A DNA stretch of 64,000 bases from contig CM000432.1 in the NCBI GenBank assembly GCA_000165345.1, positions 928,001 to 992,000 of the forward strand, in the 5' to 3' direction. The position numbers were made by a program, and so were the translations under genes. This document shows positions 1,578-30,510 of the stretch, piece by piece. Below the pieces are notes generated by a model. That model did not search any database. It was not told the DNA's origin and saw only the letters and a list, made by a program, of their open reading frames with translations. Numbering within the stretch: position 1 is the stretch's first letter; each line of letters begins with the position of its first letter.

Positions 1578-4500
1578 TTAGTAATAATCAAAGTGTAGAA
1601 AAGCATCATGCCTTTTTGCTGATAAAATAGCAACTTCTCTTCTAAGAAATAAGTGGAAAAGTTTGTTATGATAATATGTGTGAAGAATTGAGTTGATTGA
1701 GGAAGAAATACTCTTGGTAATCAAGTTTGTGAGTAGAATAATTATTAATATTAAAGAAATCAATGCCAAAAGCGATATAACAAATGTAAATAAAGTAAAG
1801 AATAGCTGGGATCGAAAAATTAATTGTATCTGCCCTTTTACAATAAAGAAGTGAAGAGCAAAGAAAACCAAGAAGAAGAAATAAGCTGATTTAAAGTATT
1901 TATTGTAAAGGGTGAGCTGAAGAAAGCCATTGTTTCTTGAAATAACATAATTCCAAATTGTTATAAAGAATGTAAGCTCTCTTAATATCAAAGTCTCATT
2001 TATATTTGTAAGCTTACGCTTTTTTCTACGTTTTAAGAGATTATTAATTATATATAAAAAAATACGAAACCTTTGTATAATTAATACCCATAAAAATCCA
2101 AGAGGATTGAGAAATGACCATACAAGAAGAGCAAAATGTGAAGCCAATATTACTTCAAAGAATACTGTAATTATTGTTGATTCTGAAAATCTAATCCATT
2201 TTTCCGGGTATCGAAGAAAGTTAAAGTATAGATTCTTCTTATCAATGTAAGAAAGCGTGTAAAAGGAGAGAGTAATCAACATACAAATTAACCATTGAAT
2301 TATATACCAAATTCTACAATCATTTGGTCTTATGAACTCGGCTTGACAAATTGCAAGAATGTGGCGTTCAATTCTAGAATTCTGCAAATGAAAACTCTGA
2401 ATTTGGCTTGGAAAATTACTCAAAATTGGAGAATATTCCCCTGGGCTTACATTATTCTGGTAACTTATAGGGCTATTATTTGAGTTGGTTATCTGTGAGA
2501 CTGAATTGTTACTATTGTTCTTATTGCTTATTCCCATACTTGCACATAAATTACTGTTCGATGCAATCCCTCCATTATTTACATTAAAAAGAAAGTGCTC
2601 ATCTGAGAGAGTCATACAAGAATTCATTGCCTCAAATGGATTTTGAGAAAACATTGTATTACTATTTGGAGAGTTACTGCTTGAAACAAGATCTATGTCG
2701 TAAATCATATTAAGATTATTACTTTGAGCAATGTTCTGGGATTGAAGCAATCCAGAATGTTTAGTACACATCCAAATTGAGTAATATTCATAAAAAACAT
2801 CCTTCAAAGTCCAATACTTATGAGATGGAAGTTTTTTGTACCAGAACTTTTCATTTATTAATTCAATAATATTTTGGCTAGGTTCAATTTCGTTAAATTG
2901 GTTCATCGGGCTATTGGATTGTAAAGGAGAGTTGTTCATATGAGAATGAATTAACCTGGAAGCTGGAGTTAATAGAGAGTCTGAATATTTATCCAAAATA
3001 TGTACGATCTTTTCATTATACATTGGTGAAACATTTGATGAATCCTGATTGGCATTTAATGATGACGAAAAGCTTATCATATTCTCAGAATTTGTTTCAT
3101 TAAGTTCCAACCCTTCGCCTTGAAATTCATTATCTGGACTTAATAAGCTTAAAAGATCAACACTTGATGGAACAAAAAGATGGAACAATCGATCTCTCTC
3201 GCGAATTGAAATGGTTGCAAGAGATAAAGAAGCGTTTGAAATTGCTGATAGTAAAGAAAGGTAAACTGAAACAATCATTAAATCAATACTCTTGCATAAA
3301 ATAATCCAATACATTGATATGAATAAAATAACTAGACGAATTAATCCAAAAAAAATAAAAGTATTGGTTTTTCTCTGAATCTCTGTGTCTTTGCAATTAA
3401 AGAGCCTTCTGATTCTAAAGAAAATATCTTCAAAAGCATCATAACCAACAAGAGTACATTTCAGTCCAAAAATTAATGCTCTTAAATATGATTTTGATTT
3501 TATTGGAAGGTTATTAGCAAGTAAGAATGTTGGAGAAATCTGTTTTCTTGTACTCAGAAATGATGAAAGCCCTATCATAAAAAGAACATATTTTGACAAG
3601 ATCCAGTTTAATATGAACTTAAAAGGAGCCAATATAAACAATTCTTTTCTCTTCATTATTGAGTTTCGATTTTGGACATTGCTTTGTTCAGCATCACTTA
3701 TATCATTATGTCTGAAGAAATTGCGATTATTACTATTCACTCTTTCGCTTTTACAGCTATTACTGGTATTAATAGTACTATGGACATTTGAATTATCATT
3801 GGCATGAAAGTTCTGGCACTTCTTTCTTTTTAATGAATTTTTGTTTTCTTCTAATAAAGAATTAAGAGAAGATGACGATTTATCACCCTTGGAAGAATTA
3901 TATAAGGGGTTAGTGGTTTTATATTGTTGATAACCAATTAAAGAACCATCAACTGAATCATCAAAAGATTTAATAGAATTATCAGTGTTAGCTCTATCCA
4001 TATTGTTTCTTATATATCTTTTCTTATAAGATGAAGGAGTATCACTTACAATTAATACTGTTAATAAAATCATAATAGCACTTGCAAGAGTTATTATAAT
4101 AATAGCAACAATCTTATTATCAATTGACTGGCTTGATTTAAAAGAAGGATGGCTTATTATAGCTTCTGAAATAACGCTCCTTTTCACGACAAAGTTGTAG
4201 AATGGCTTGGTATCTTCGCTGATTTGATGTTTTCTAAGTACAAACTTTAAAATAGATGGAGAAAAACCTAAATTTTGAAGAACAAATAAAGATAGAGGTT
4301 GAGGTAATTTTGCAGATCTTGGCATTCTTGATCTTAAAAGGAAATCCATAGTTTTACTAAGATGATTTTCCATAACAATTCCATTAGAAAGAAGATCCAT
4401 ACTATCCCAGGTTGAAAACAAAAGCAAATCTACAAATCTTGGAGTACTAACATCACATGTATAATTCAACAAGGACTTTGTGGAAAATTCAAGAGGAGAG

Positions 4501-6788
4501 ATATTATTGATTCGTGTTTCATACGTATGACTTGGAAAAGGAAGGGGAAATGATTCATCGTAAATGCTCCTCTTGAATTGATCGTTGGGATACTTATTAT
4601 TAAGATCAGAAATACGATGTTTCACTGTCGTTTGGGATTTCGGAGTATGTTTTCGGGATTCCATTTTAAGCTTCGAATTAAACAGCTTCTTATTAGAATA
4701 AGACAACTTTGGTAAAAAAACTGAAATCACATATTGTAAAAGTTTAACAGCAATAGCCTCTTCAGACTGCTTACAGTAGTCGAGCTCAACTAAAATATCA
4801 TTAAAAGCTTTCGGTCTATTCTTTAAAAGAGTGAAAAGAGCAAGATCTACACCTTTTTGATAGATAGAATTGGAGTCAGTTGGCTGATGTTGTTTCAGAG
4901 CCAGTTTGAGAGCACCGTGATATGCTTTAGTACAGAGATGTTTGTATTTGGAAAGGCTATTGGTTGTAGTTTGCTCAATACATTGGTTGAACAAATTTGT
5001 GAAAAATATCGTCAATAAATTATTTCCACGAAGAATGCTAATACTAAGGGAATTGGATTCCTCTAAAGAATTTGTCTCACCAATAACTAATAGAGGATAA
5101 AGGAATGGATTCAGTATTTTGTTTCTGGAAAGTTCTTCCAGATTTTCAGTTTTTAATTTGACATCTCTTTTAAAGACCATAGAAATAATCTTTGAAGTTA
5201 ATAGTAAGACAGACTGTTCAAGCTGGTCTTTTTCATTATTGCCTTGGCTAACCAAATTACTATTAATTAAAGTGAAAATATTTGCTTTAATCATTTCACT
5301 GAATCTCTTCATTATTTCACTCTTCTTGATCAAAATCATCATTTGAGTAACACTTTGGAAATTGGAATTAGGTTTATACATTGGAACACCAAACATAACC
5401 TTTGTGAGAGTTTCAATACTTCGATCAGAGTACAGTGCTTGAATCAGAAAAGATCTATTTGAATGTGGATCAACCATAAATAGAAGAACGAATATATTCA
5501 TCAAAACAATATTTGGAGTATTTTTTGACATTAAAGAAGTTCCTTTGAACATTAAATCCATGAACCTTCTTCTAAAAGAAAATCCATATGGTTGTTCTTC
5601 GCTATATAGGCGAGAAATTAAAAGTTCAATTGGCATAATTTGATTATTCCCAGTTTTATGGGGATTACATATATGCCCTTCTGGTAATTTTCTTGCTTGG
5701 ATATAGAATTCTAATAATCTGAAGATTAATTTGGGATAATGCAGTTTACATGCCCACCAGAGAATAGTTAGACCATTTTGATCAGTGGAAGAGCATATTA
5801 CTACATTTTCAAGTGAAATTTCAATCTCGAGTAATTCTAAGAGTATTTGTTCTCTGATGTAGTACTTAATTCCCAATAAAAGTCTTCTAGCAGCAGAATG
5901 ATGGTATTCTGGAATATTCTTTCTAATATCAAACTCTTCAAGCGAATATCTTTTTGAACTAATCAATATTGGAAGAATATCAATTCTATTTTCAAGAACT
6001 GCCAAAGTGACAGGATCAAAGCCAGCATAATTTCTAATCCAAGGAAAAGCTCCAAAAGATAATAGAGCGCTAACAGCTTCTTTGAAATTCACCATTAATG
6101 CATGTATGAGTGGAGTGTTTCCTAGAATATCTCTAAAATTGGGATTTGCTCCTTTTTCAAGCAAGTAATTTACCAATCCTATATCAAGTTGGCTGATTGC
6201 ATAAAACAAGGGAGTTCTTCCATCGGAATCAGTACAATCTAGGTGAGCTTTTCCTTTTTCTATTAATAATCGAACAACTTCTTTGTGTTGATTCTTGCAA
6301 GCTAGAAGAAGTGGGGTGAATCCATATTCACTATAAAGGTCAACAGAAGCTCCTAAAGAAAGAAGGTGGGATACAAAAAAATAGCCAATTTCTCCAGAAA
6401 TTTTGCATGCTGCAGTCAAGGCGGTTTCTGAGTGTTTACTTTTTCCAAATTTATAACCAATTCTTGAAAGAAAGCTGGAAATATTGATAAATCTTCCAAT
6501 ATCTCGTGCAATTATTGATTCTAAGAGTTGTACTGGGGCAGATAAACGATCACCGGAATATCTTGTGAGTATAGATTTGGAATTTTCCATACTTTCCTCA
6601 AATTTTGACCAACTACTCATTGAATAGTATTCCGATTCCGTGATTTTACTACTTTCAGAAATTTTATATCCATATTTTCTTTTCGTTTTTGGACTAACTA
6701 TTTTTCCAGTAAATATTATTAAAATGATAATTAAAGTAAATCCAATGATTCTTGAGAATTTGGAATAAATTCGAATATGATGATTCAT
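1578..6788 (-). CDS. Giant ankyrin-repeat multi-pass membrane protein, paralog A (1736 aa)
   Basis: ATG confirmed at 6788. N-terminal signal-anchor (FTLIIILIIFTG), about 5 ankyrin repeats (GFTPLLLACKNQHKEVVRLLIEKGA...DGRTPLFYAIS...GNTPLIHAL), a TM at about aa 1010 (IVAIIIITLASAIMILLTVLIV) and a cluster of C-terminal TM helices. Clear paralogy with the next gene, e.g. VVICSSTDQNGLTILWWAC..LLEFYIQARKL..CNPH here versus AMICQVTDEEGRGAFWWSA..ILDFYSRAIRN..CNPH there. Confidence 0.7.
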   Translation of the reverse strand: MNHHIRIYSKFSRIIGFTLIIILIIFTGKIVSPKTKRKYGYKISESSKITESEYYSMSSWSKFEESMENSKSILTRYSGDRLSAPVQLLESIIARDIGRFINISSFLSRIGYKFGKSKHSETALTAACKISGEIGYFFVSHLLSLGASVDLYSEYGFTPLLLACKNQHKEVVRLLIEKGKAHLDCTDSDGRTPLFYAISQLDIGLVNYLLEKGANPNFRDILGNTPLIHALMVNFKEAVSALLSFGAFPWIRNYAGFDPVTLAVLENRIDILPILISSKRYSLEEFDIRKNIPEYHHSAARRLLLGIKYYIREQILLELLEIEISLENVVICSSTDQNGLTILWWACKLHYPKLIFRLLEFYIQARKLPEGHICNPHKTGNNQIMPIELLISRLYSEEQPYGFSFRRRFMDLMFKGTSLMSKNTPNIVLMNIFVLLFMVDPHSNRSFLIQALYSDRSIETLTKVMFGVPMYKPNSNFQSVTQMMILIKKSEIMKRFSEMIKANIFTLINSNLVSQGNNEKDQLEQSVLLLTSKIISMVFKRDVKLKTENLEELSRNKILNPFLYPLLVIGETNSLEESNSLSISILRGNNLLTIFFTNLFNQCIEQTTTNSLSKYKHLCTKAYHGALKLALKQHQPTDSNSIYQKGVDLALFTLLKNRPKAFNDILVELDYCKQSEEAIAVKLLQYVISVFLPKLSYSNKKLFNSKLKMESRKHTPKSQTTVKHRISDLNNKYPNDQFKRSIYDESFPLPFPSHTYETRINNISPLEFSTKSLLNYTCDVSTPRFVDLLLFSTWDSMDLLSNGIVMENHLSKTMDFLLRSRMPRSAKLPQPLSLFVLQNLGFSPSILKFVLRKHQISEDTKPFYNFVVKRSVISEAIISHPSFKSSQSIDNKIVAIIIITLASAIMILLTVLIVSDTPSSYKKRYIRNNMDRANTDNSIKSFDDSVDGSLIGYQQYKTTNPLYNSSKGDKSSSSLNSLLEENKNSLKRKKCQNFHANDNSNVHSTINTSNSCKSERVNSNNRNFFRHNDISDAEQSNVQNRNSIMKRKELFILAPFKFILNWILSKYVLFMIGLSSFLSTRKQISPTFLLANNLPIKSKSYLRALIFGLKCTLVGYDAFEDIFFRIRRLFNCKDTEIQRKTNTFIFFGLIRLVILFISMYWIILCKSIDLMIVSVYLSLLSAISNASLSLATISIRERDRLFHLFVPSSVDLLSLLSPDNEFQGEGLELNETNSENMISFSSSLNANQDSSNVSPMYNEKIVHILDKYSDSLLTPASRLIHSHMNNSPLQSNSPMNQFNEIEPSQNIIELINEKFWYKKLPSHKYWTLKDVFYEYYSIWMCTKHSGLLQSQNIAQSNNLNMIYDIDLVSSSNSPNSNTMFSQNPFEAMNSCMTLSDEHFLFNVNNGGIASNSNLCASMGISNKNNSNNSVSQITNSNNSPISYQNNVSPGEYSPILSNFPSQIQSFHLQNSRIERHILAICQAEFIRPNDCRIWYIIQWLICMLITLSFYTLSYIDKKNLYFNFLRYPEKWIRFSESTIITVFFEVILASHFALLVWSFLNPLGFLWVLIIQRFRIFLYIINNLLKRRKKRKLTNINETLILRELTFFITIWNYVISRNNGFLQLTLYNKYFKSAYFFFLVFFALHFFIVKGQIQLIFRSQLFFTLFTFVISLLALISLILIIILLTNLITKSISSSINSILHTYYHNKLFHLFLRREVAILSAKRHDAFLHFDYY

Positions 6789-7388
6789 TATTGCAAGTGA
6801 GAGAAGAAGAGCAATATTGAAAAGAAAGGAATTTGAATATGAATTTAAATGGCTTGGGTATCAGTTAAATATTAATAAAGTTAGTATTCCAATTAAAATA
6901 TAACCCAAATACATTTGTATTTTAATTAAAATATTAAATATAATCTAATTAATTAATTCAAATATAAATATTTACATCATGCATGCACCAGAAATACTTG
7001 AAGATTCATCATAAGACTTACAAAAAAGTCAAATCTTTTAAATATATGAATTAGCTTTGCTTTATATTAATCAATAATGGGCAGTTATGAATGTTCAACA
7101 ATGATTTTGGAATTGATCATTCAATTAAGAAATTTCTTCATTTACTTTTTCCAAAGCATAAATATCAAATATGGTGGCAAATTGAATGATAATTTATCCA
7201 GTATTATGAAAATGAACTTTTGAGAAGCAACTCTTTATTGTAAATAAGACAAAATATATTTTTATAAATGAACAAAAATAACTTCCAATAGTAAATTAAT
7301 TATCGTCCAAGCAAGAAGTTAATTTTGTGATTACTATATATAAATGTAATTATATAGTAAACTCTATTTATATAAATAAATAAATAAA

Positions 7389-7411
7389 TATATATATATA
7401 TATATATATAT
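7389..7411. repeat. (TA)n microsatellite in the intergenic region
   Basis: tatatatatatatatatatata read directly. Confidence 0.9.
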
Positions 7412-7565
7412 TCGTATTTGTGTATAAATATAAATATATATTTATAAATGTAAATGTATATAAATATGTATGTATATACACATTGATATTTATTTATTTA
7501 TTTAGAAATTGACGTATTATTTAATGATTGAATATAAGAAAAATGTGGGTACTACTCAATTGAAA

Positions 7566-7617
7566 TGCGCGCCAAAAATTATAGTTAAACACACAAAATT
7601 GGGACGGAAATGCATGC
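7566..7617. promoter_or_regulatory. E2F-like TGCGCGCCAAAA (7566..7577) and GCATGC (7612..7617) upstream of paralog A
   Basis: Motifs read directly in the 5' intergenic region of the minus-strand gene 1578..6788. Confidence 0.35.
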
Positions 7618-7716
7618 AAAATCGAAAAAATAAAGGTACCGAAAAAAATAATAATAAATTTAAAAATTAATGATTTAAAAGTTTTAGTAAATTAATGATT
7701 GAAGTAAAACGTATAA

Positions 7717-10700
7717 TTAACTAAAGTTAACATTGATTAACAATACAAACATTAAAATTGACCCAAAAAGCAAAGGTAACTTTACTGGAGTATTCAGAAT
7801 ATAAAAGGGGGAAGTGAGGAATGGTAAAAGTCTCATTGTAGTTTCAACTGAATTCAGAAGATTTGAACATATTGGAAGAATATCATAAACGTCTGGTACC
7901 CATTGCCAAAATTCAATAGTTAATATATGTATTTCAACCATAATATGCATTATATATAATAATGAAGCAGAAAGTAGTAGTGTTGAAATTGGAACAACAT
8001 TCCATAGTCTTATGGTTTTTATTGGCAGAGAATTAATTTCAACATAGCAGTAAACCAATACAAAAGAGATAGTTACAATTGCCAAAACATCTCTGAAAAG
8101 GTCAATAGGCTTCCAAAAATATTTGCATATTCTATGGGAAGTTCTTCTTGAATCAGCCCAAATAAAGAAAGGATATATTTGTGCTTCAAGGACTTGGTAG
8201 TATGAAGTTTCAGAATTACTTTCAATATTGCATAGATTAGCCTTGGAATAATTAATTTCGAAATGTTCAAAGTCTTGGTACTGAATTTCTGTGGAATAAT
8301 GATTTAATTTAAGGAAATTACTGAGCCTAATTTCTGGGCTCTTACTATTAATGGAATTCACAGGGGTTGTAGAGTTAGAAGGTTGAAGTAAATTTAAAGT
8401 ATTTTGAGGTGGATTTAATGAAAAACTATCAGTTACTTGAGTTGTCTTATTATTCCCAGTTTGAATATTCGCATTTGAGATTTCCAAAGGTCCACCATAT
8501 GCAATTTCTCCTACACTTTGCAATCTAATATTGGGATTACTCTGAGTTTTAAGTGAGTTATTTGAAGAATTCTTGGTTAAATACGCACTTGGTGAATTAT
8601 TTCCATTTGAACTTAATATAGAGTTCTTATCATCAATTATAAAAGACTTATTTGTAGATTTTTTATCTCTTGATTGTTTTTTTTCTCCTGAAAATAATGG
8701 AGTACCAATTGAATTGGCTCTGCTCACTTCCTTTGATGAGTAAGATTGAGAAATTAAAATTTTGCTATTTTTAGCATTTGGAAGTAAAATACTTAAAGGA
8801 GTTGAGAGAGCAGAATTAAAGATACTTGAGAGTGAATGGAAATGATATAAAGCAAGAATTACTGATATGATTGGGGAAGAAATCATTGAAAGTAATTGCC
8901 AATAGTATATAAATGCTGTAAAATGGAGAAATGAAACTGTTAATGGGTAAAATCTTGTAAATTGGAAAAGATGAGGATATTGGAATTGATAAAGCTTTCT
9001 ACATGAGTTTATATTACCAAATATAAATGTTAAATCTGCAGAGCTATATTTCCAGTCTCTAGAAATTGAAAATTCTGGACTACTATAACAATTAAAAGGT
9101 AACTTCATGGTAATTAGAAATGAAAATATGAGACAAATAACTTGAACAATAAATAATAAACGGTAACATTTGAAAGTTTTTTCAACATTATTATAACATA
9201 ATTTTGAAATTTCCAAAAATCCAATTTCTGGAATCTCTGTATAAGTATTTTCTGGAGAAAGATTATTCCTGGAAACTAGAAGCTTTTTAATTTGCTTTGA
9301 AGATATATCTTTCATATCAGTTGTTTGAGAAAGCGTGGCATTTCTAAGATTACTATGAAGATAAATTGCTCTCTTTGCTGTTTTAATTACTTGAGCATTT
9401 GTTTGTTCATAAAGAATCATAATTTCTGGTAATAATAAACTATTATTACATTTAAAACAAGAATTCAATTGGTCATACATATTCTCATCAATTCTAAATC
9501 CATGAAAAGTATAAATGATGATTGCTATACAAGTTAGTAATACAAAGCATACGATTTCTTCGTAAATTTGAGAAATTACAATCCATATAAAGAATGTAAG
9601 AATTGAAATTAGCTTTATAAAATTAAAGGCTTTTGAGAATTTGATAATAAGTGAAATAAGTGAATATTGGAATGACTCATAGAGATTTTCGTGATTACTT
9701 CTATACTTTCTCACTGGGAATTCTGAAACTTTATTAATTAAAAAACAAGCTTTAATGGAATTTAAAAGTCCTAACTTAATATTATTTTTTGAAGGAAATG
9801 GGATATTTAGCATAAAAACCAAGCCAAAATCCATTGTAAAATTACATCCCAAATCAGACAATACAGTTTCTTGGTTTATTTGACTTGAATATTTTATCAG
9901 CTTATTCTTAGCTGGATTACAAATCGAATAAAAACTTAAATTTGAATTGCAGTATATGGAAAAAAGTGTCAAAGCTGTAACGAAGCAAAGGATTACAAAT
10001 ACTATATCAGATTTTGTTAGCTTATTTTCCCAAGGAAGATTGGATATTTCTCTTAATTTCTCTATTAAACTCAGCTTGATTGGACAACCTTCATTAGTTT
10101 TACTTGTTCCGAAACTTTCAATAAACTCCATTTGGCCTTTCTCATTCTCAACATTATACATATTATCGTAATTATTATTGGAATTCCAAAAATGATAATT
10201 TTCGCTCTCCGAATTACCAAAATCTTCTTTAAACCCAAAAATATTCTTTTTATCATCAATTCCTACTGAAGAACCCAAATTATCCTCATCTATAGTATCT
10301 TTTTTATTTGAAGAAAAATTCATCTCCCAGTACCCACTCTTTGAATAATAATGTCTAACATTACCACTTTGAGTACCATAATATAAACAATAACTTGGAA
10401 GTCCACCAAATAGTTCAAGAATACTTGAAGGTTTATAATCTATTAAAGCAAGTAAATTTAAGCTCTCCATCAACTGTTCAGCAGAAAATAATTTTACGAA
10501 TCTTGAGGACAAAAGTGCATGCAATACCGGTAATGTGTCTCTCTGACCTTTATATTTATATAAAATTGTGGCGGCCCTTTGCAGAGGGGAATATGCATGC
10601 TCATCAAATGGCGGGAAATCACTCGGAAGAGCATCCAATAAGGCTAGAACATGAATTGCATCTGATGGAGATTTATAACTAACTCTGGTAAGGATTTCTC

Positions 10701-13700
10701 CGATAGTATCGGGTCTGAGCTTAACAATCGAATAAATTGCATCGGTACTAGCTTCACCAAATGGATATAAGAAATGGCTAGGGATAATACTAGGGTGAGC
10801 ATAAGAAGAAGTTGGTAATGAAGAAGGAGAAGAACCGGAATTGAATCCTGAAGGATTTGAGTTTGGTTGTAAGTTTGAGGAGGAAGAAGATGGGTTACAT
10901 TGTTGTTGGTTTGGATGAGAAGTTGAATATCTAAAAAATTGTGGATTTTCATGCAAATATGATCTTCCTTCAAATGGTTCATTAAAAAGATCTCTTGAGA
11001 CTCCTGGATTTGAGAAATACCTAGCAGATTCATCAGCATATTGATCATAAATATCTGGGCTACTTTTCGTTTTGAAGTTTGACGTTTTATACAAACGAGA
11101 ATTTGAGGATTTGTCATTTAATTCTTGGTAAATTGTGTCATGGAAGTTCATCATGTTATTGAAGCTATGATTTTCAATATGACTATTGCTATTTCTCTTG
11201 CAGTATTTGCAATTATTTCTACAGTTTCTCGTATACTTTAAGGAGTCTCTGTATGCTTTGTAGTCTCTATTCTTTGAGTTAAAGGGATCATTACAAATGG
11301 AATTTTCCATCAAATTTCTATTTTTAGAGAAAAGTTCCGTATTCAGAGCCAAAGAATTATTTGAATTGTATTTGAAGGAGCTGTGAGAATTATCAGAATC
11401 AAGTCCAACAGCGTACTCTAATAGTTTTCTAATATTCTCAATGGATTTATGTGAAGGACCTCTTCCAATAACAATTTTTGCAATGCTTTCAGGACTGTCG
11501 TCAACTTTAACATAATTAATGGAGAAGATTGACCTTAATCTTGGAGGAAGGATAGTTAAAGGAAGATCTTCAGGAGGAATAGTGTTAGAAGGAGTTCTAT
11601 TTTGAGACTCTTCATTCTGAAGGAGAAAATTTATATTTGTCCTCCATTTATTATCAAAGAAATTCTTCGTTCCAGTACCACTATTTGCAAAGAATTCTTT
11701 TGGTTCTCTAAGAATTTTCTTTTCAGTTCGATTTGATAAATCTCTTATTAGTTTCTTCTTCTTAAGCTTGAGAGAAAGAACAATATCATCATTTAAATCA
11801 TTTCCAAATAAATTACCATCTTGATGTTCAAAGTGGGAAAATTGGTTCTCATTAAGCTGTAACATGGATGTAATATCAACATTCTTCACATTCTTTAAAA
11901 TATGGACCGAATTCATCACTCTTCTTCTCCATATTGAAGTGCTTCCCATTGTTTCTTCGGAGTATTTCACTGCTATTTCCAGAAGATAGTAAATAATTCT
12001 TGTGGATAACTTCCTACTGACTGCATAATATATTGGATCAGTCATACTGGATCTATTTGACCAGATATTAATGAAAGAGTATGAAATATTAAACTTTTCT
12101 TTCAAGGTATGAATAATACTCTTTAATGCTCTTAAAGGCTGCTTTGATTTTGCCAAAATCTGTAAAATAAGAGGAGAATTGGTTTTTGGATCTTTAAATT
12201 GAAGCATATCAATAATTAGCTTCTTTGGTATTCTCTGAGCCTTTTTGATGATTAAATTTAATGGATAAATACCATATCTATCATCTCTATGGGGATTACA
12301 ATTCTGATAACCTAACCATCTATTACGTATTGCTCTACTATAAAAGTCAAGAATTATTTGTATTTGCTTAATATTACCATAATAAGCAGACCACCAGAAA
12401 GCTCCTCTTCCTTCTTCATCAGTTACTTGACAAATCATTGCTACCTTCTTTTTGCTTTCCATTTTGAGTAATCTATTCAAAATTGAATCTGAGATTCGGA
12501 TTTTAACAATATCAAGAACGTGTCTCGCCTCTTTTTCATAATCCTTCAGTTGTTTGAAGAAGTGATCACGGTTAAATTGTTTTTTAAAAGTCTTTCCTAT
12601 AAGTTTAAGATCAGATTTATCTTGGAAAGTTACATATTCTAATATAATGGATCTAATATCATTATCAGAGGTATTAATATCATAATTAGCATGATTTACA
12701 ATCCTTTCAATCATTTTACCGTCATTTTCACGAATTGCAAGATCCATTACATCTAGACCAGAGATAGGTGAAATTCTTAATGGATCTCCTCCATTGTCCA
12801 TGATCAAGCTTAGCATTGCTCCATTATGGTTTTCTAAAGCTATCATTAAAGGATTTAAACCAGTTCTTGGATCCCATGTATTAACACAAGCTCCATTTGA
12901 GATTAAGATCTCAGCCATTTCAAGATCATTATTTTCAACAGCATAGAATAGAGAGGTATGATTATAGTTATCAACCATATTTACAAGTTTTTTTTGATCA
13001 CATTCTAAATTATGAGTCAAAAGTTCTGGAAAATGAGAATCTGATTGTGTAGATTGACTCTTGGGTAGTTGAGTATATGTGGAAGAACCATCATTTTGAA
13101 GTTGATTCAAAAAATCAAGATCTAGGTCTTTTTTCTTATTAGAGCAATTAGAATATATGGTTGATCTTGAAGAATTAAAATAGCTTAAGGAAGATGAGGG
13201 AGAAGAAGGTAAAGTTGTGGAATTTGAGAATTTGGGAAAAGATAAAGTGGAATGATTAAGATCAGAAGATGAAATATTGGTAATATTAAAGCCAGAGGAT
13301 GAATAGGAATATGTATCAAAATCTTCCGGAGTATTTGGATCATTTTTGGATGTATCATTAACATTTGAAATTTCAGCAAGAATGAATTTGACAATTGAAT
13401 GGTTGGATTTACTTACAGCTAGAGTAAATAATTGAGGAAACTTTTCAAAAATGTGAATATCGAGACCATATTCAATAAGTTTCTTAAGTATATGCAAAGA
13501 TCCACTCCTTTTACGTCTTATAAGATTATATAGAATATGGTATCCTCCTTCAGTATCTAAGACTTTGCTTTTAATATTATTAAGTTTCTTGCAATAGATA
13601 AGATTTCTTTTTTTATATTCAGTATTATAAGTGGTAATATTAAGCATAAGAGGTTCAATAATATCCAAAATAGCTCTTGAGCTCATATCAGTTTCAAGAA

Positions 13701-14280
13701 AATCTGCAATTAGATATAATGGATGAATGTAATATGTAAGTTTTTCTTCTAACGGTACTTTTTGTACTGGCCTTTTGTAATAAATTGGAATAATTGCATT
13801 TTTTCGAATTCTAGCATTAAATGAAAAAAGCATAGATCCATCATGGTTAATAGCAGAATAGAGCTTGTTATCTGAGATATCCTCATGGTCGTTTTCAAAA
13901 TATACTAAACTCTCAAAGAAATCTTCAGTATCGTCAAGTTTTCCTGTTAACAACAGATTCTTTGTAACCTCAGGAAGTTCAACAAGTTCATTAATAAATT
14001 CAGGAAACATCATTTCCTCTCCACCAAGAATTTTATTATCCTTATATAGCTTATCTTCAGATAACTGTTCTAATCCTGCTCTTTTATAGTAGTAATTATC
14101 ATGAACATTGTTGCAATTAGCAATAGGTCCTCTAATTTCAGATCTTTCGACAAATTGAATACTTTTTAAAGCCTCCAAAAAACTCAGAATTAGGAAACAA
14201 ATTAGAATAGTAAAATTAATTCTCTTGGATTCATTATTTCTTAAGAAGACATTTTTTGTCTTATTTTGTGTGTTTTTCAT
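7717..14280 (-). CDS. Giant ankyrin-repeat multi-pass membrane protein, paralog B (2187 aa)
   Basis: ATG confirmed at 14280. N-terminal signal-anchor (INFTILICFLILSFL), ankyrin repeats at about aa 440-520 (NHTSLFYAVENNDLEMAEILISNGACVNTWDPRTGLNPLMIALENHNGAMLSLIMDNGGDP), at least 8 predicted C-terminal TM helices, and long S/N-rich low-complexity inserts. Shares conserved blocks with paralog A. Confidence 0.7.
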   Translation of the reverse strand: MKNTQNKTKNVFLRNNESKRINFTILICFLILSFLEALKSIQFVERSEIRGPIANCNNVHDNYYYKRAGLEQLSEDKLYKDNKILGGEEMMFPEFINELVELPEVTKNLLLTGKLDDTEDFFESLVYFENDHEDISDNKLYSAINHDGSMLFSFNARIRKNAIIPIYYKRPVQKVPLEEKLTYYIHPLYLIADFLETDMSSRAILDIIEPLMLNITTYNTEYKKRNLIYCKKLNNIKSKVLDTEGGYHILYNLIRRKRSGSLHILKKLIEYGLDIHIFEKFPQLFTLAVSKSNHSIVKFILAEISNVNDTSKNDPNTPEDFDTYSYSSSGFNITNISSSDLNHSTLSFPKFSNSTTLPSSPSSSLSYFNSSRSTIYSNCSNKKKDLDLDFLNQLQNDGSSTYTQLPKSQSTQSDSHFPELLTHNLECDQKKLVNMVDNYNHTSLFYAVENNDLEMAEILISNGACVNTWDPRTGLNPLMIALENHNGAMLSLIMDNGGDPLRISPISGLDVMDLAIRENDGKMIERIVNHANYDINTSDNDIRSIILEYVTFQDKSDLKLIGKTFKKQFNRDHFFKQLKDYEKEARHVLDIVKIRISDSILNRLLKMESKKKVAMICQVTDEEGRGAFWWSAYYGNIKQIQIILDFYSRAIRNRWLGYQNCNPHRDDRYGIYPLNLIIKKAQRIPKKLIIDMLQFKDPKTNSPLILQILAKSKQPLRALKSIIHTLKEKFNISYSFINIWSNRSSMTDPIYYAVSRKLSTRIIYYLLEIAVKYSEETMGSTSIWRRRVMNSVHILKNVKNVDITSMLQLNENQFSHFEHQDGNLFGNDLNDDIVLSLKLKKKKLIRDLSNRTEKKILREPKEFFANSGTGTKNFFDNKWRTNINFLLQNEESQNRTPSNTIPPEDLPLTILPPRLRSIFSINYVKVDDSPESIAKIVIGRGPSHKSIENIRKLLEYAVGLDSDNSHSSFKYNSNNSLALNTELFSKNRNLMENSICNDPFNSKNRDYKAYRDSLKYTRNCRNNCKYCKRNSNSHIENHSFNNMMNFHDTIYQELNDKSSNSRLYKTSNFKTKSSPDIYDQYADESARYFSNPGVSRDLFNEPFEGRSYLHENPQFFRYSTSHPNQQQCNPSSSSSNLQPNSNPSGFNSGSSPSSLPTSSYAHPSIIPSHFLYPFGEASTDAIYSIVKLRPDTIGEILTRVSYKSPSDAIHVLALLDALPSDFPPFDEHAYSPLQRAATILYKYKGQRDTLPVLHALLSSRFVKLFSAEQLMESLNLLALIDYKPSSILELFGGLPSYCLYYGTQSGNVRHYYSKSGYWEMNFSSNKKDTIDEDNLGSSVGIDDKKNIFGFKEDFGNSESENYHFWNSNNNYDNMYNVENEKGQMEFIESFGTSKTNEGCPIKLSLIEKLREISNLPWENKLTKSDIVFVILCFVTALTLFSIYCNSNLSFYSICNPAKNKLIKYSSQINQETVLSDLGCNFTMDFGLVFMLNIPFPSKNNIKLGLLNSIKACFLINKVSEFPVRKYRSNHENLYESFQYSLISLIIKFSKAFNFIKLISILTFFIWIVISQIYEEIVCFVLLTCIAIIIYTFHGFRIDENMYDQLNSCFKCNNSLLLPEIMILYEQTNAQVIKTAKRAIYLHSNLRNATLSQTTDMKDISSKQIKKLLVSRNNLSPENTYTEIPEIGFLEISKLCYNNVEKTFKCYRLLFIVQVICLIFSFLITMKLPFNCYSSPEFSISRDWKYSSADLTFIFGNINSCRKLYQFQYPHLFQFTRFYPLTVSFLHFTAFIYYWQLLSMISSPIISVILALYHFHSLSSIFNSALSTPLSILLPNAKNSKILISQSYSSKEVSRANSIGTPLFSGEKKQSRDKKSTNKSFIIDDKNSILSSNGNNSPSAYLTKNSSNNSLKTQSNPNIRLQSVGEIAYGGPLEISNANIQTGNNKTTQVTDSFSLNPPQNTLNLLQPSNSTTPVNSINSKSPEIRLSNFLKLNHYSTEIQYQDFEHFEINYSKANLCNIESNSETSYYQVLEAQIYPFFIWADSRRTSHRICKYFWKPIDLFRDVLAIVTISFVLVYCYVEINSLPIKTIRLWNVVPISTLLLSASLLYIMHIMVEIHILTIEFWQWVPDVYDILPICSNLLNSVETTMRLLPFLTSPFYILNTPVKLPLLFGSILMFVLLINVNFS

Positions 14281-14784: not shown

Positions 14785-16458
14785 TTAACCGTCCCTAGAG
14801 TCACCAAAAGACTCCATATTTGGATTTTGCTCAATATTGTTCTGAACAGGATCTTTTTTCTTAGATACAGAGCTAAGAACATCGTCTATTCTGAGGAGCA
14901 TAAGAGTGGCTTCTACAGCAGTCTTATAGACTTGTTGCTTGACAGCAAGTGTATCCCAGATGCCGAGTTCCGTAACATTTGTAATAGCGCCAGTACATCC
15001 ATTAATTCCATGAACAGGTTTCTGCCCCCTGGTTGCAGATGAAGGTAGATAATGAGATTTTAATAAAGTCAAAGTCTTCATTACATTAGCTCCACAATTT
15101 TGAGCTAGAGTCTTTGGTATAATTTCCAGAGCTTGGGCGAAAGCTTTGTAGGCCCATACTTGGGTATCATCAATAGAAAATGACTTTTCATTCAAGTAAC
15201 AAGAAATGGCCATTTCTGTACCACCTCCGCCAGGAAGTAGAGCTGGATCAAGAAGGATATTTCTTGCAACAGCAAGAGCGTCATGGAGATTTCTCTCGAG
15301 CTCATTTAAGACGTCCTTGGATCCTCCTCGTAAAAGAATGGAGCATGCCTTTGGAGTTTTTGATTCGGTCAGGAAGCAAAAGTATTCATCTCCAATCTTC
15401 TTGACCTCGAATCTTCCGCAGCAAGTACCTACATCATTTGGTGTAAGCTCTTCTGTTCTGCTAGCAATAGTAGCTCCAGTGACTCTAGCGATTCTATTAT
15501 TATCGCTCTTCCTGACCCTTCTAATTACAGAAATTCCTGCCTTAACAAGGAAGTGTTGAGCAAGATCAGAAACACCTTTTTCTGTGAATACAACATTGCA
15601 ACCAGTTGCAATAATATCCTTACACATAGCTTCAACTTCTTCCTCCTCCTGTCTTAATAGAGCCTCCCAGTCTGCCTCCTTAGTGATTTCTACATTTGTC
15701 TGACTTTCGCCTTTCTTGTATTCAAGAGTACAGTCCAATAACAAAACCTTTGGATTAATGATCAATCTCTTCATTCGCGGGTGGACTACATCCTTGTTAA
15801 CAACTACACCATCTAAAACATAGCTATCCTCAATCTCACCTCCTGGAATCTTTTCAATTCTTACATATCTCTTAATATCAATTTCTTTTGGTGAACCTGA
15901 ATTAGCAATTGAGACAGTCTCAGCTGCTTTTAATGCCATAGAACTAATTAAACTACCCCATCTTCCAGAAAATTTAGTTTTTAAACAGGAGTCAACTACA
16001 CTAACCAAAGATTCTTTGTTATTTACATCCAATTTAACGCTCATTTCCTCCATGAACTTTATAGAGTCATCTAGTGCTCTTAAATAACCCTTTGCTATAA
16101 TTGTTGGATGTATGTTTTTCTGTAAGAGTGGCTCTGCACAAGCCAAGAACTCTCCTGCTAGAACTACAACACTTGTTGTTCCATCTCCTACTTCTTCATC
16201 TATAGTTCTTGAGAGTTCAATTATAGACTTTGCTCCTGGATGAGCAACATCAACCTCTCTCAAAATACTGTTTCCATCATTTGTAAGAACTATTCCACCC
16301 AAAGGATCTAAAAGCATTTTTAACATTGCTTTTGGGCCCAAAGTTGTTCTAACAACATCTGCAACAGTTTTTCCAGCTTGAATATTTCTTAACTGGGCTT
16401 TTCTTCCTTGATCTCTTTGAGAAGGTTGTTGTACAACCAAAACTTGATTTGGCATCAT
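14785..16458 (-). CDS. CCT3: T-complex protein 1 subunit gamma (CCT gamma chaperonin)
   Basis: ATG confirmed. N-terminus [103 protein letters not shown] aligns closely with eukaryotic CCT3. Group II chaperonin signatures present (GDGTTS ATP-binding motif). Confidence 0.9.
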
Positions 16459-17774: not shown

Positions 17775-19448
17775 ATGTTGAGAGCTCCAATAATTCTTTT
17801 GAAAGAAGGATCAGATACATCCCAAGGTAAAGGTCAAATCTTGAGTAATATCACAGCATGCCAAGCAATTGTTGATATTGTCAAGACGACTTTGGGTCCA
17901 TATGGCATGGATAAACTTATTCATAGCGGTAACTCTCCAGATGATGTAACAATTACCAATGATGGAGCAACAGTCTTGAATTTACTTGGAATTGTGCATC
18001 CTGCAGCAAAACTATTAGTAGAGATAGCAAAGGCACAAGATGATGAGGTTGGAGATGGTACTACAAGTGTAGTAATTTTAGCAGGCGAATTCTTAAAAGA
18101 AGCAAAGGGCTTTATTGAAGATGGAATGTCTCCACAAGTAATAATATCAGGTTTTAGAAAAGCAAGCCAAATAGCAATAGACAAGGTAAATAGTATGAAG
18201 ATCAGCCTTTCCGAGGAGACTCCAGAAAAGAGACGAAGTATGTTAATAAAATGTGCTGAGACAACTTTGAACTCAAAGTTATTAGCTCATTATAAGACTC
18301 ATTTTGCAGAAGTTGTAGTCGATGCTGTTTCATACTTGGATAATGAAATGGATAAAGACCTCATTGGGATTAAGAAGATTAATGGAGGGTCAGTTATGGA
18401 TAGTTTTCTAGTAAAGGGAGTAGCATTTAAGAAGACATTTTCATACGCAGGTTTTGAACAACAGCCAAAACATTTTGTGAATCCTAGAATCCTCTTATTA
18501 AATCTTGAATTGGAACTTAAGGCAGAGAAGGATAATGCTGAAGTTAGAATCTCTGACCCCACTGCCTACCAAAGTATTGTAGATGCAGAGTGGAAGATTA
18601 TCTTTGAGAAATTGGATCTCATTGCCAATTCAGGAGTAAATGTGGTTTTAAGCAGACTTGCAATTGGAGATTTGGCTACTCAGTACTTTGCTGATAGAAA
18701 TATCTTTTGTGCTGGAAGAGTTGAGGAGCAGGACCTTAAGAGAACCTCTTTGGCAACAGGAGCCATTGTGCAAACAACAGTTTATGGCTTAAACAAAGAT
18801 AGTGGAGTATTTGGTACTTGTTCTGAATTCGAAGAGGTTCAAATTGGAGCTGAGAGATATAATATCTTCAGAGACTGTGCAAAGACAAAGTCATCCACAA
18901 TGATCTTGCGTGGTGGTGCTCAGCAATTTATTGATGAAGCTGAGAGATCCTTGAATGATGCAATTATGATTGTAAGAAGAGCAATGAAATCATCATATAT
19001 TGTTCCTGGAGGAGGAGCTATTGAAATGGCTGTTTCTAAGACTATTAGAGATCACGCTAGAACAATTCTTGGTAAGGAGCAATTAGTCATGAATTCTTAT
19101 GCAAGAGCTCTAGAAGCAATTCCTAGATCCTTAGCAACAAACTCTGGGTTTGACTCCATTGATATCTTAAACAGACTTAGACAAAAGCACTCACAAAACA
19201 CCGAAGATTGTAGTAATTATGGTGTAGATTGCAGCAACGGAGGGATTTGCGATACTTTTAACTCATTCATTTGGGAGCCAGCTGTGAATAAGCTTAGTGC
19301 TTATTCAAGCGCAACAGAAGCTGCATGCTCTATTCTTTCTATTGATGAGACTGTTAAAAACAAGTCCAGTGAGGAGGATAGAATGCAGGGTCCTCTACCT
19401 GGAATGGGTGGTATCCCTCCAGGTATGATGGGCGGAGCAAGGAGATAA
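17775..19448 (+). CDS. CCT7: T-complex protein 1 subunit eta (CCT eta chaperonin)
   Basis: ATG confirmed. [51 protein letters not shown]...[47 protein letters not shown] matches CCT7 throughout. Gly/Met-rich C-terminal tail [15 protein letters not shown]. Confidence 0.9.
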
Positions 19449-20119: not shown

Positions 20120-23100
20120 ATGAATAGAAGAATTTTTAAAGAAACAAAGTTATTTTGGATTTTAATTCCAATTATAATATGTATAATATCACTTTCAACG
20201 AATATTTTTGATATTAATTCAATTGAAAAGAATAACAAAATATTTAAACTATGGAATGGAATATTAGAGAATGGAGATAAATTTTTAACAATAAGAAAGC
20301 TGGTAGGATTATCAAGAAATAAAGAATATAATCATAAGAAATATCCAATATTACGCCCAAAATATAATATTAGAGAAAAAAACAAGGTAAAAAATTGGAA
20401 TGACTTAGGGGTAGTATTGCAAAGTAAATGGCCACAAGTACCGTTAGAAGCTTCATTGATAGAATTTCTATCAGAGTTTTACCTAGGAATAGGAAGTACA
20501 TTTGAAGACTTAGTGAGAGATTTAATTAATATAAATAACCACGAAGATGGAAATAAAATTATTACAGCAAGGTTAGCAAGTGAATTGGTTGATAATAATC
20601 TAGGGATCAAATTAATGGAGACTATGGTAATTAATAAATACTATTCTCCTAGAATTGAGTCAATTCGAACATTAGAAAGAAATCAAAGAAGTGTTTTTGG
20701 AATAATATGCAAAAAGGCTAGTTGGTTTATTGTTATATATCAAGAAGAGACTGTTGATACATTTTGTAATTCCAATGATCTTTATAATAGTGTAATAAAA
20801 GGGAGATCTAAAGGATTTGAGAATGTAGAAAAATATGATTTAAGCTTCTCAAAATTTGATTTAGCAAAAGAACATATAATTGAAAATACTTATATCAATA
20901 TAGAAGAAAACAATAAAGTGAAAAAAATTGATATTTACGCATATGTCGATTTTTCAGAAGATAATTCTATAGAAATTTTGAATAACTTATTGAATATTTG
21001 GGATATATTAAAAGATCAAGGTCATGTAAGAATAAAAATTAGACATTGTGATAATGCTGATCTGAATGGTGAGATTGAATATTTATCTGGATTTGGAGTT
21101 TCAGTGAATAAACTATCAGAAAAATCGAATTCAGTAAATAATTCAAGTTCAGCTAAAAATGATATTTTTCAAAATGAGTTTAAATTCTCCCAACATAATC
21201 ATGATGAATTGGAATATTCTCACAAGGATGAAGAGTATAAAAACTTGACCGCAATGTGCGATAAAGCTGTGAATATGGAAAATGTATTAAATTCTGATGG
21301 GGATTTATCTATTGAATGTATGAAAGATATTGGAGCATTTCTAGTATCATTATCCAAAAGATTTGAGGACCAATTAGGTGCAATGGTACATTATTTAGAG
21401 AATTTTGGGACTTATCAAGTAGCATTGTGTAATGGATTAAGAGAAAACACTACTTTATCGGGCTATAATCAATTGCATGATCGTGTTTCAGAAGGATCCA
21501 CATTCTTTACTCTTAATGGAAGATTATTTTCCCCAACCGAAACAAATTTTTTTAATTTGGTTACTTTATTAAAGAGTTTAATTTTCTCAAAAATCAGATT
21601 AATGAAAAATAAGATCGATGATGAAGTTGTTATTATAGATTCTTTATCAATAACCGGAGTAAATGAGAAGGAAGAACTAAATCTATTTATGGAAAGTATT
21701 AATGGCCAATTGAATGATTCAAGAATTAATAACAAGTATAATAATGTAATAAAAGATAAGGGGTTAAAAAACCTAATAGAGAGAGGAGAAGTTCTTGATT
21801 TTGGCTCAATACTTGAATTTGAGAAGGATTTAGAAGAAGATCCAACTTTAATGGACGATACAGATTGGCTTGGGAAAAGAGAATATGTATTATCAAGCTC
21901 ATCTCCATGGCTGAAGAATTCTCCAAGAACTGATTGGAGAGTATCAAATATTCTTCCTTTGAAATCACGTCATTTTTACAAGGATATTACTAATATTGGT
22001 GATTCTCAATGGGGTGTGACTCCTAGTATTTTTGAAAAGGTATGGTTTCATAGAAACATTACTGAAAATAATGAAGATCAAGAGGATATTATTAATGATC
22101 TTGAAGAAAATAACTCCACTGAAGCGAAGATTTTACAAGAAATTGAATATTCACCATGGATAATGTACAGGATATATTTTTCAAATCAGGTTAAAAATTC
22201 GAGATTAATTCAAGATTATCCAATATATGATATTATGAAGGAACCAGAAAATACACTGGGTCAGTATTTATATCCATTAGAGAGTTTGCCAGAATTATTT
22301 GAAAAATATCCTGAAAATGTAGGGATTTATCCAGTCAAGGCTACAATTCTCGAAATAATAATAATGTGTGATCCATTTGATATAGAATGTATTACAGTGA
22401 CCATTGAAATGATTAATAAGAAGTGGCCAATAAAGTTAAACTTGTTATTAATAGACCCAGAATGGGTTAATTCCAGAAAGCCGGATTATTCTAGACCATT
22501 TTCATACAAAAATGTGACTTCAGAAGATGATTTTGAAGCTAAGTTTAGAGATATTTATGAAACTCAGAGAGAAATAGAAATTAATAAGGAAGGAAATCAA
22601 ACATACTGTAATAAAAATTATGGAGAGGAAAATGTTCAGAATTGCCCAAAGTGGATGAATAAGAAAAGAGGATTAAATTCTAGGAGGATATTGGATTACT
22701 ATGAGAAATTTGACAATAATTCAAAAGGAGAATATGCCTTGAAATTGGCAATTTCAGAAGTTTTTGGATTCTTGGTTTCTTCTTCTACAATTCAAGGAAT
22801 GTTTCTTGCAAGAGGTTTTATTGAAATGGTTGCAAAGAATTTACCATTAATATTAGAAGAAGAATTTACTTTAAGTCAGTTTCAAGAGTTTTTGAGTAAA
22901 TTCTTTGCTCATTTTAGTATCAATGCAGAATTAACCAAAGTTTGGGAGATTATTTATTCCAATAATCCAAATGATATATCTTACGTGAATAAGGTGGTAT
23001 CGTATTGTAGACTTAAAGGATTCACAACTCCTGGAGCTTTAGTTAATGGTTACTTTGTGGAAATTACTGATTTAATATTGGAAGAAGTAATCTATGGAAT

Positions 23101-27704: not shown

Positions 27705-28182
27705 TTTTTTTTAATCAAAAAAAAAGTACCGATAATTTTTTCTATACCGGTTACACGTAATTAAGTTATAAACCGGTATTTTTTTTTTTTTTTTTAATTT
27801 AAACAAAAATAAAAATTTGAAATTATGATATAATTGAACAATTATTAAATAAATCAATATATTCTGAAGATTAGCACTAATAAAATATTTTGAATTTAAC
27901 ATTTAAATAGTAAATGAAAGTACAAATTCAATAAACTTAGAACCCAAAGGAATATACAAAAACTCCGCCCCACACTATCATCTTTTGGATCTATTAACAA
28001 TATTAAACATAAATTGAATTAATTATTTTTGTGTGTATTGATAAAGAGATATTTTTTCTTTGTTATTATTATTATTTAATACATAAACAAAAAAAAAAAA
28101 AAGAAAAAGAAAGTGCATAAAAAAGAATTCAGAGTTGAAATTAAATATAATATAACAAACATTAACATTTTACTAATAAATT

Positions 28183-28893
28183 ATGTCTTCATTTATTCCA
28201 GGTATAAGAAAAGAACATTTGGAGGAAAGTTTGGAAGATTCAGTTGAAAATTCAATAGAAGATGACTTATTGAGTGAATATTTTCAAGAATTGTCATCTT
28301 TGATTGAAGAATTAAAACAAGGAAAAGAAATATTTCAACAAAATAAGGCAAAATATACAGAACAAGAAAAAGCAAAGTATCAAGCATTAATACTTTCATC
28401 TCAAAAATTACTGGAAATTATTTACTTTGAAATTCATTTTAGTGAATCAAATACAAGAAATTATCAAGATTTTCAGAATTATATCAAATATAAAGAGAAT
28501 CTTTCAAAATTATATCAAGATTTCTCCAAATTTGTAGTTTTTGTTGAATCTGATAATAAAAATGAAGAAATCTTAATTTCAAATTCATCATCAAAAGAAG
28601 ATACTAATTTTGATTCATCCTTAAACAATAATGATTTATTATTAGAAAAAAATAAAGAATATATCTTTGAAGAAAATATCAAAGAAAAAACTTCAAAAGA
28701 TTATTATTTACTTCAAAGTAAAAGATTATTAGAAGAAACAAATCAATATAGTCAACAAATACTTTTAAATCTAAATACACAAAAAGAACAATTAATAAGT
28801 ACCGATAATAAAATGGGTAATATATCAAAAAGTTTACAAGATTCATCATTATTAATAGACAAAATGACAAGATGGTGGCATCAACTTATCTAA
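28183..28893 (+). CDS. Vti1-like Qb-SNARE (coiled-coil protein, no transmembrane anchor detected)
   Basis: ATG confirmed. The C-terminal heptad segment QILLNLNTQKEQLISTDNKMGNISKSLQDSSLLIDKMTRW aligns with the Vti1 SNARE motif ILTDLHGQREQLERTRSRLVNTDENLSKSRKILRSM. The ORF stops (HQLI*) exactly where the TM helix would begin. Confidence 0.5.
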   Translation: MSSFIPGIRKEHLEESLEDSVENSIEDDLLSEYFQELSSLIEELKQGKEIFQQNKAKYTEQEKAKYQALILSSQKLLEIIYFEIHFSESNTRNYQDFQNYIKYKENLSKLYQDFSKFVVFVESDNKNEEILISNSSSKEDTNFDSSLNNNDLLLEKNKEYIFEENIKEKTSKDYYLLQSKRLLEETNQYSQQILLNLNTQKEQLISTDNKMGNISKSLQDSSLLIDKMTRWWHQLI

Positions 28894-28899
28894 TTATTA

Positions 28900-30456: not shown

Positions 30457-30510
30457 CACAATAAAATAATTTTTAAATATTTTAATATCTTAATAATATA
30501 TTTACGCGAA

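Follow-up and report, generated by a model that had tools for sequence, protein, structure and literature searches.

What are two very large neighboring genes of Cryptosporidium parvum, each encoding ankyrin repeats followed by a multi-pass membrane region, and do they derive from one ancestral gene? The question is raised by a stretch of 64,000 nucleotides (GenBank assembly GCA_000165345.1, contig CM000432.1, positions 928,001 to 992,000 of the forward strand), which we refer to as the window; it is AT-rich, with a GC content of approximately 20–37%. A prediction made from its letters alone described two adjacent same-strand open reading frames (ORFs) of 1736 and 2187 amino acids (aa) as a tandem pair of paralogous membrane proteins. 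Both ORFs are present, intact, and identical to database proteins; herein, we call the genes A and B. Both genes, as well as their gross architecture of ankyrin repeats and transmembrane (TM) segments, are already in public annotation. What is new in our analysis is modest: the ancient paralogy of the pair, the recognition of a shared sequence block as a degenerate ankyrin repeat, an argument for an upstream start codon, and a link to female expression. The pair and the spacer between the genes are located as follows (all positions are those of the window):

1578..6788, minus strand: gene A, intact ORF of 1736 aa, cgd4_3830 (EAK87747 / XP_625958).
7717..14280, minus strand: gene B, intact ORF of 2187 aa, cgd4_3840 (EAK87746).
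6789..7716: spacer between B and A, the region upstream of A, 928 bp, with GCATGC at 6981 and 7612.

Protein A shows 100% identity to the C. parvum Iowa II entry that GenBank names 'Ank repeat protein with possible signal peptide', and protein B exactly matches the Iowa II protein named 'Ank, ankyrin repeats containing protein with 9 transmembrane domains at C-terminus'. The CryptoDB identifiers were assigned by synteny with eIF3c, Rrp8 and TCP-1. In C. serpentis, the genes run TCP-1, TCP-1, B, A, two others, an Rrp8-type methyltransferase, two more, and eIF3c. By comparison with this order, the C. parvum genes for eIF3c (cgd4_3770), Rrp8 (cgd4_3800) and TCP-1 (cgd4_3850 and cgd4_3860) fix A as cgd4_3830 and B as cgd4_3840. 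Each is labeled 'Ankyrin repeat containing protein', and they are placed in different OrthoMCL groups (OG5_195296 and OG5_195297).

The two proteins resemble each other well beyond their low-complexity regions. BLASTP of A against B produced one significant high-scoring segment pair (E 2e-16, 27% identity, A180-393 / B430-680). Orthologue families were represented by 17 aligned models (8 of A and 9 of B), and an hhalign comparison of the two families returned a probability of 99.3% and an E value of 5e-20 over A181-392 / B432-680. When sub-regions were compared separately, the canonical ankyrin part yielded an E value of 5.6e-13, the non-ankyrin helical linker 2.7e-4 (versus 0.48 for its reversed control), and the WW...CNPH block alone 6.4e-16 with a score of 76. 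Thus, the block V.IC..TD..G....WW...CNPH, which the original prediction had pointed out as evidence of a tandem duplication, is common to A and B far above chance, and the duplication itself is borne out by significant alignment outside low-complexity sequence.

This block lies after the canonical ankyrin repeats and can be written as C-x3-D-x2-G-x4-WW-x13-L-x-FY-x2-A-x5-8-G-x2-3-CNPH-x8-P. Its core residues agree in the family alignments of all 17 orthologues, and 21 of its positions are invariant across ten aligned sequences (five per family), among them, in A numbering, C332, the WW pair, and C374-N-P-H377. The invariant cysteines and histidine are found at aa 332, 374 and 377 of A (window positions ~5656-5795) and at aa 617, 661 and 664 of B; the C...CNPH cysteines are the only invariant ones of the whole N-terminal domain of B. 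They could form a disulfide staple or, with the histidine, part of a metal site. The block has no match in Pfam. It is a degenerate ankyrin repeat that has turned into a family signature, because it aligns in register to the canonical ankyrin repeats of A (score 24-26, E ~1e-3) and is modeled by AlphaFold2 (AF2) as a helix pair that extends the ankyrin solenoid. Both proteins combine this signature with a polytopic C-terminal half, and we regard them as one family on this basis.

Does the relationship extend over the whole length of the genes? Two weak colinear matches were found downstream of the signature: A650-693 with B1181-1224 (hhalign score 36.7), and A1088-1184 with B1487-1589 (score 32.1), the latter aligning the invariant C1111 of A with the invariant C1512 of B. 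Both exceeded 14/14 reversed or block-shuffled controls, whose scores ranged between 21 and 28.7. Comparing A with B by hhalign, neither the C-terminal TM clusters nor the N-terminal regions preceding the ankyrin repeats gave a significant alignment. Homology of the TM regions is only weakly detectable. A and B are true paralogues; the profile similarity, the weak colinear matches, the adjacency, the same strand, and the same domain order together support tandem duplication of a whole gene, followed by extreme divergence.

We next consider the age of the pair. Orthologues of A were found in C. hominis, C. tyzzeri, C. meleagridis, chipmunk genotype I, C. ubiquitum, C. canis, C. bovis, C. ryanae and C. 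serpentis, and orthologues of B in C. hominis, C. tyzzeri, C. meleagridis, chipmunk genotype I, C. ubiquitum, C. ryanae, C. xiaoi, C. muris and C. serpentis. The gastric C. serpentis has B and A adjacent, beside the same two TCP-1 genes; in C. ryanae, the two orthologues carry consecutive locus tags (FG386_002299 and FG386_002300); and in three other species they are reported on contigs of equal size. The adjacency in C. serpentis and the consecutive tags in C. ryanae show that the duplication is older than the split between gastric and intestinal Cryptosporidium, and that the pair has been kept side by side since. A HMMER profile scan with the membrane half of A (aa 880-1736) against 1.84 billion cluster representatives matched two proteins, both of the A family of Cryptosporidium, and nothing outside this genus; B was not matched. 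A homology search with B deprived of its ankyrin domain likewise found Cryptosporidium proteins only, and a scan of metagenomes for the signature block returned no match. The suggestion that this may be a lineage-specific family is thus supported: cgd4_3830 and cgd4_3840 form a family restricted to one genus.

The domain architecture was assembled from Pfam, hydropathy, orthologue conservation and AF2 models. The parts of the two proteins, all encoded on the minus strand, are:

6684..6788, minus strand: A aa 1-35, signal-peptide-like N-terminal hydrophobic segment (hydropathy; in 8/8 orthologues).
5589..6551, minus strand: A aa 80-400, ankyrin solenoid composed of canonical repeats, helical linker and degenerate repeats (Pfam, AF2, Foldseek).
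5604..5816, minus strand: A aa 325-395, signature block of the family; this degenerate ankyrin repeat holds the invariant cysteine pair and histidine.
4134..5588, minus strand: A aa 401-885, conserved all-helical middle domain (orthologue identity; AF2 helices of low confidence).
1581..4133, minus strand: A aa 886-1736, membrane half (hydropathy and orthologue conservation).
14149..14280, minus strand: B aa 1-44, signal-peptide-like segment (hydropathy; in 9/9 orthologues).
12991..14148, minus strand: B aa 45-430, conserved N-terminal domain specific to B, with a variable serine/asparagine-rich (S/N-rich) insertion at 301-430.
12235..12990, minus strand: B aa 431-682, ankyrin repeats, linker and signature block, paralogous to A 181-393.
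10021..12234, minus strand: B aa 683-1420, middle region, conserved at 683-950 and 1150-1300 with low-complexity sequence between.
7720..10020, minus strand: B aa 1421-2187, membrane half; its eight conserved hydrophobic segments fall into three clusters, and an S/N-rich loop spans 1816-2059.

Tandem 33-residue helix-turn-helix repeats detectable by ankyrin hidden Markov models place both proteins in the ankyrin-repeat class. The Pfam matches scored above the gathering threshold at approximately aa 138-260 of A (Ank_2, E 3.2e-26) and aa 426-540 of B (Ank_2, E 2.5e-13). Because sub-threshold repeats are also seen at approximately aa 258-308 of B, its ankyrin domain may be split by the S/N-rich insertion at 301-430. 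The AF2 model of the N-terminal half of A had a predicted local distance difference test (pLDDT) score of 74-94 over most of aa 80-375, with one 10-residue block at 64; this confident region is a paired-helix ankyrin solenoid, and a Foldseek search with it returned ankyrin-repeat proteins only. For the membrane half of A, modeled from an 8-sequence alignment, pLDDT was 33.6.

Hydropathy averaged over the orthologues placed the N-terminal hydrophobic segments at aa 14-30 of A and 21-38 of B, and revealed 9-10 later hydrophobic segments in A and 8 in B, all conserved across orthologues. In A, TM1 (888-915) is followed by a variable loop, a cluster at ~1045-1190, an S/N-rich loop (1191-1490), and a last cluster at ~1491-1698, which carries a KRRKKRK loop at 1585-1592 and is succeeded by a conserved C-terminal tail. 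In B, TM1 spans 1422-1446, and the remaining hydrophobic stretches lie at 1551-1597, 1703-1728, 1793-1815, 2060-2118 and 2162-2185. Mean identity of A across the genus is 83-89% for the ankyrin domain, 65-76% for the middle domain (400-885), and 63-86% for the last TM cluster and tail; the S/N-rich loops between clusters have 20-50% identity and up to 35% gaps. Indel-prone S/N-rich stretches are found at 900-1050 and 1200-1490 of A, and at 1850-2000 of B as well as in its more N-terminal part (300-430, 950-1150 and 1300-1400). Invariant polar residues lie inside the C-terminal hydrophobic segments of A (E1545, H1551, N1561-P1562, Q1572 and R1573). The shared layout that the original prediction described thus stands as regards the N-terminal hydrophobic segment, the ankyrin repeats, and the presence of several TM segments, of which we count 8-10, and has to be corrected in the rest. 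The "very long low-complexity middle" is wrong for A, whose aa 400-885 are conserved and predicted to be helical, the S/N-rich stretches being mostly inter-cluster loops; and the supposed C-terminal bundle of TM helices is in fact three clusters spread over ~800 aa.

Where does protein A begin? Three recent models of 1680 aa (KAL5369052.1, KAL3128519.1 and WKS77355.1) start cgd4_3830 at M57, which removes aa 1-56 (window 6621-6788), including the hydrophobic segment. A hydrophobic N-terminus is present in 17/17 orthologue models (8/8 for A, 9/9 for B); five residues of A ahead of M57 (Y39, G40, Y41, K42 and Y55) never vary among the orthologues; and C. bovis, C. ryanae and C. serpentis have no M57. 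Because of these three observations, the original M1 start is favored over M57. The segment has the classical look of a signal peptide, with a short n-region and an h-region of ~12 residues, in C. bovis, C. ryanae, C. muris and C. serpentis, and short classical N-terminal forms of B are found in C. ryanae, C. xiaoi, C. muris and C. serpentis. The likeness of the conserved N-terminus to a signal peptide makes an exoplasmic or luminal position of the ankyrin domain probable, although the balance tips toward this side of the membrane, as opposed to the cytosol, only slightly. In 7/8 A orthologues, more positive charge lies on the C-terminal flank of TM1 than on its N-terminal flank, which supports an exoplasmic N-domain in A; the KRRKKRK loop is clearly cytosolic; and an exoplasmic position is compatible with the invariant cysteine pair forming a putative disulfide. 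A precedent for a secreted ankyrin protein in this lineage is RON9, encoded by cgd4_2420 (PMC3299665).

Expression was taken from the supplementary tables of Tandel et al. 2019 (PMC6877471), in which mean values are given as log2 counts per million and differences as log fold change (logFC):

cgd4_3830: asexual 4.17; female in vitro 6.28; female in vivo 6.44; logFC of female versus asexual 2.10.
cgd4_3840: asexual 4.22; female in vitro 6.62; female in vivo 6.13; logFC of female versus asexual 2.41.

Female gametes thus contain approximately 4-5 times as much of both mRNAs as asexual stages do. Both genes are among the differentially expressed genes, of which 673 are defined as female-upregulated at a false discovery rate cut-off of 0.01; both occur in one co-expression file, and both are in the list of C. 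parvum-specific female genes that have no counterpart in P. berghei or E. tenella (PMC6877471). In the same tables, cgd1_3740, which has a similar annotation, is also higher in female than in asexual parasites, and it may be a third family member or an analogue. According to a 2026 review, uncharacterized membrane proteins expressed by early females are thought to act in fertilization (PMC13657310).

The hexamer GCATGC lies 193-250 bp upstream of the start codons of both ankyrin genes. It resembles the known Cryptosporidium AP2-type promoter motif. In the window, 25 copies were counted (e.g., at 6981, 7612, 14530 and 63415-63424) versus 3.3 expected from shuffles; most are intergenic, and some form overlapping runs, such as GCATGCATGCATGC at 30512-30525. 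Since the motif is enriched throughout the window, we rejected it as a sign of specific co-regulation of the A/B pair.

Neither protein matched any Pfam family other than Ank at E<=1. A sequence search of PDB found no relative for the middle parts of A or B, and at E<=10 none for either membrane half save three chance-level, unrelated matches for A; every PDB match, among them TRPA1, NOMPC and latrotoxin, ran through the ankyrin repeats. The earlier statements that the pair could not be assigned to a known channel, transporter or receptor family, and that neither a pore loop nor a DHHC motif is visible, agree with these searches: Ion_trans is absent at E<=1, and the pattern D[HY][HY]C is absent from 17/17 orthologues.

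What, then, do the two proteins do? We tentatively propose that A and B are a female-stage, membrane-anchored docking pair, and not channels or enzymes, an explanation to which we give well under even confidence. The ankyrin solenoid, probably exoplasmic or luminal, would bind a partner protein, and the orphan membrane domain would fix this partner in a membrane of the female stage, which may be the plasma membrane or that of an organelle such as the wall-forming body. The two paralogues, having been retained and expressed together, would probably act together. Several points weigh against this proposal. Joint action of A and B is pure inference; the female enrichment is moderate, comes from a single dataset, and concerns genes of modest expression level; and a literature search by accession, product name and gene identifier found no paper discussing cgd4_3830 or cgd4_3840 in the library searched. 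The evidence on topology is also contradictory: lysine and arginine (K/R) counts in the flanks of the predicted TM segments are mutually inconsistent, segment parity conflicts, and the TM1 flanks of B and of C. serpentis A do not favor an exoplasmic N-domain. Moreover, C. parvum A has 5 K/R in the 15 residues after its hydrophobic segment versus 3 before it, a bias consistent with the segment being a reverse signal-anchor and the ankyrin domain cytosolic, and the newer gene models that begin at M57 lack this segment altogether. The same architecture may therefore be mounted in the opposite topology, with the N-terminal segment acting as a reverse signal-anchor or being untranslated, so that the proteins would link the parasite membrane to cytosolic partners such as the cytoskeleton, vesicle coats or signaling proteins. 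Ankyrin repeats are overwhelmingly cytosolic, which speaks for such an adaptor. It is opposed by the hydrophobic N-terminus common to all orthologue models, with its classical signal-peptide form in four species; by the invariant residues before M57 and the loss of M57 in three species; by the positive C-flank of TM1 in most A orthologues; by the disulfide-compatible cysteine pair; and by the existence of a secreted ankyrin protein, RON9, in the lineage. We consider the cytosolic version doubtful when taken by itself, and almost as likely as the docking pair.

The docking pair has also to be weighed against functions within the membrane. A and B might be subunits of a novel ion channel or transporter that works like a TRP channel, with the ankyrin repeats as a regulatory or tethering module. 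Their resemblance in layout to TRPA, TRPN and TRPV, the conserved last TM cluster of A with its invariant polar residues, and the ankyrin-level matches to TRPA1 and NOMPC structures, agree with this. In addition, the pLDDT of 33.6 for the membrane half of A would leave a channel or transporter fold structurally possible, which counts against the docking pair. We nonetheless rejected a TRP-like channel as the identity of the pair and keep it as an improbable rival: there is no Ion_trans or transporter match in Pfam at E<=1; the membrane halves match no PDB sequence, though many TRP structures were searched; the exhaustive profile search with the membrane half of A found nothing outside the genus; three TM clusters split by loops of 130-300 aa do not look like a 6-TM unit with a pore loop; the C-terminal TM clusters of A cannot be aligned to those of B; and the ankyrin domain is preceded by a signal-like sequence. 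Ankyrin-repeat palmitoyltransferases such as zDHHC13/17, Akr1 or PfDHHC1 recall the pair in gross architecture (ankyrin repeats and several TM segments) and in the conserved cysteine/histidine motif CNPH only. We rejected this identity and give it next to no credence, since D[HY][HY]C is missing from every orthologue, Pfam finds no zf-DHHC, and CNPH lies in the N-terminal degenerate ankyrin repeat and not in a loop between TM segments.

A bolder version of the docking pair can be imagined, in which A and B together make up a heteromeric receptor, carried on the female gamete's surface or on the membranes of wall-forming bodies, with an extracellular, disulfide-stapled ankyrin solenoid that would capture the male gamete or organize the assembly of the oocyst wall after fertilization. 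We regard it as a long shot. If true, it would be among very few uses of ankyrin repeats in extracellular recognition and a target for blocking transmission. If the docking pair as such holds, it would represent an unusual exoplasmic use of ankyrin repeats, and would provide a handle on the interaction of female and male gametes and on oocyst construction, both of which are poorly understood (PMC13657310). As the family is specific to the genus, conserved throughout the sequenced Cryptosporidium lineages, and lacking in the host, its members are plausible markers or transmission-blocking targets. General interest is moderate-to-low unless the exoplasmic-ankyrin or fertilization reading proves true.

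Several other features of the window were noted. Next to the ankyrin pair lie two divergently transcribed TCP-1/CCT genes, an arrangement kept in C. serpentis:

14785-16458, minus strand: TCP-1/CCT gene, 557 aa.
17775-19448, plus strand: TCP-1/CCT gene, 557 aa.

Their products share only 29% identity, so that these are separate CCT subunits of the ordinary kind: gamma (cgd4_3850) and that encoded by cgd4_3860. On the plus strand at 20120-26326, an ORF of 2068 aa has no Pfam domain, and the GC skew over 20-26 kb is 0.23-0.27. The region 28000-40000 has a GC content of 0.18-0.24 and few ORFs of at least 200 aa. On the minus strand at 45686-48271, an ORF of 861 aa without a Pfam match has an N-terminal signal-like segment, acidic runs, a C-terminal TM segment, and a long array of ~36-aa 'QPKTILIQTVPITQPKPKPKPKQ...' repeats together with PV/PM repeats. 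It resembles a repeat-rich secreted or surface protein; the AT skew of -0.305 at 46-48 kb is due to this repeat-rich ORF.

Lastly, we compared the pair with known systems that join ankyrin repeats to membranes. RON9 (TgRON9; cgd4_2420) is a rhoptry-neck protein of coccidia and Cryptosporidium, with a signal peptide followed by ankyrin repeats, and is confined to apicomplexans that infect the gut epithelium (PMC3299665). It shares with A and B ankyrin repeats that come after a signal peptide (in A and B, a signal-peptide-like segment), and hence a putative secretory route, as well as a membrane anchor and the chromosome, and differs from them in its Sushi domain, single C-terminal TM segment and C-terminal ankyrin repeats (PMC3299665). 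A and B, by contrast, have no Sushi match in Pfam, 8-10 TM segments and an N-terminal ankyrin domain; moreover, RON9 is a zoite protein, whereas the A and B genes are enriched in female stages. No sequence relationship between RON9 and A or B was detected beyond the ankyrin repeats, and identity with RON9 was rejected since its orthologue is a different gene.

TRPA1, NOMPC/TRPN, TRPV and TRPC channels resemble A and B in that an N-terminal ankyrin solenoid precedes a polytopic membrane domain, with matches in sequence and structure at the level of the ankyrin repeats. Their ankyrin repeats are cytosolic and preceded by no signal peptide, a trait on which the evidence for A and B is divided, a conserved signal-peptide-like N-terminus standing beside inconsistent charge counts. 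Unlike the pair, they have a 6-TM Ion_trans unit with a pore loop, in place of which A and B have three separated clusters. Similarly, zDHHC13/17, Akr1p and apicomplexan DHHC1 place TM helices after ankyrin repeats, and differ from A and B in possessing the DHHC cysteine-rich domain. The plant proteins ACD6 and ITN1, thought to be membrane scaffolds or regulators, also consist of N-terminal ankyrin repeats and a C-terminal multi-pass region. Membership in this ankyrin-PGG group was rejected, as PGG (PF13962) is absent at E<=1; A and B are, in addition, much larger, begin with a signal-like sequence, and occur in one genus only. In conclusion, A and B are orphan membrane proteins such as apicomplexan genomes commonly encode.

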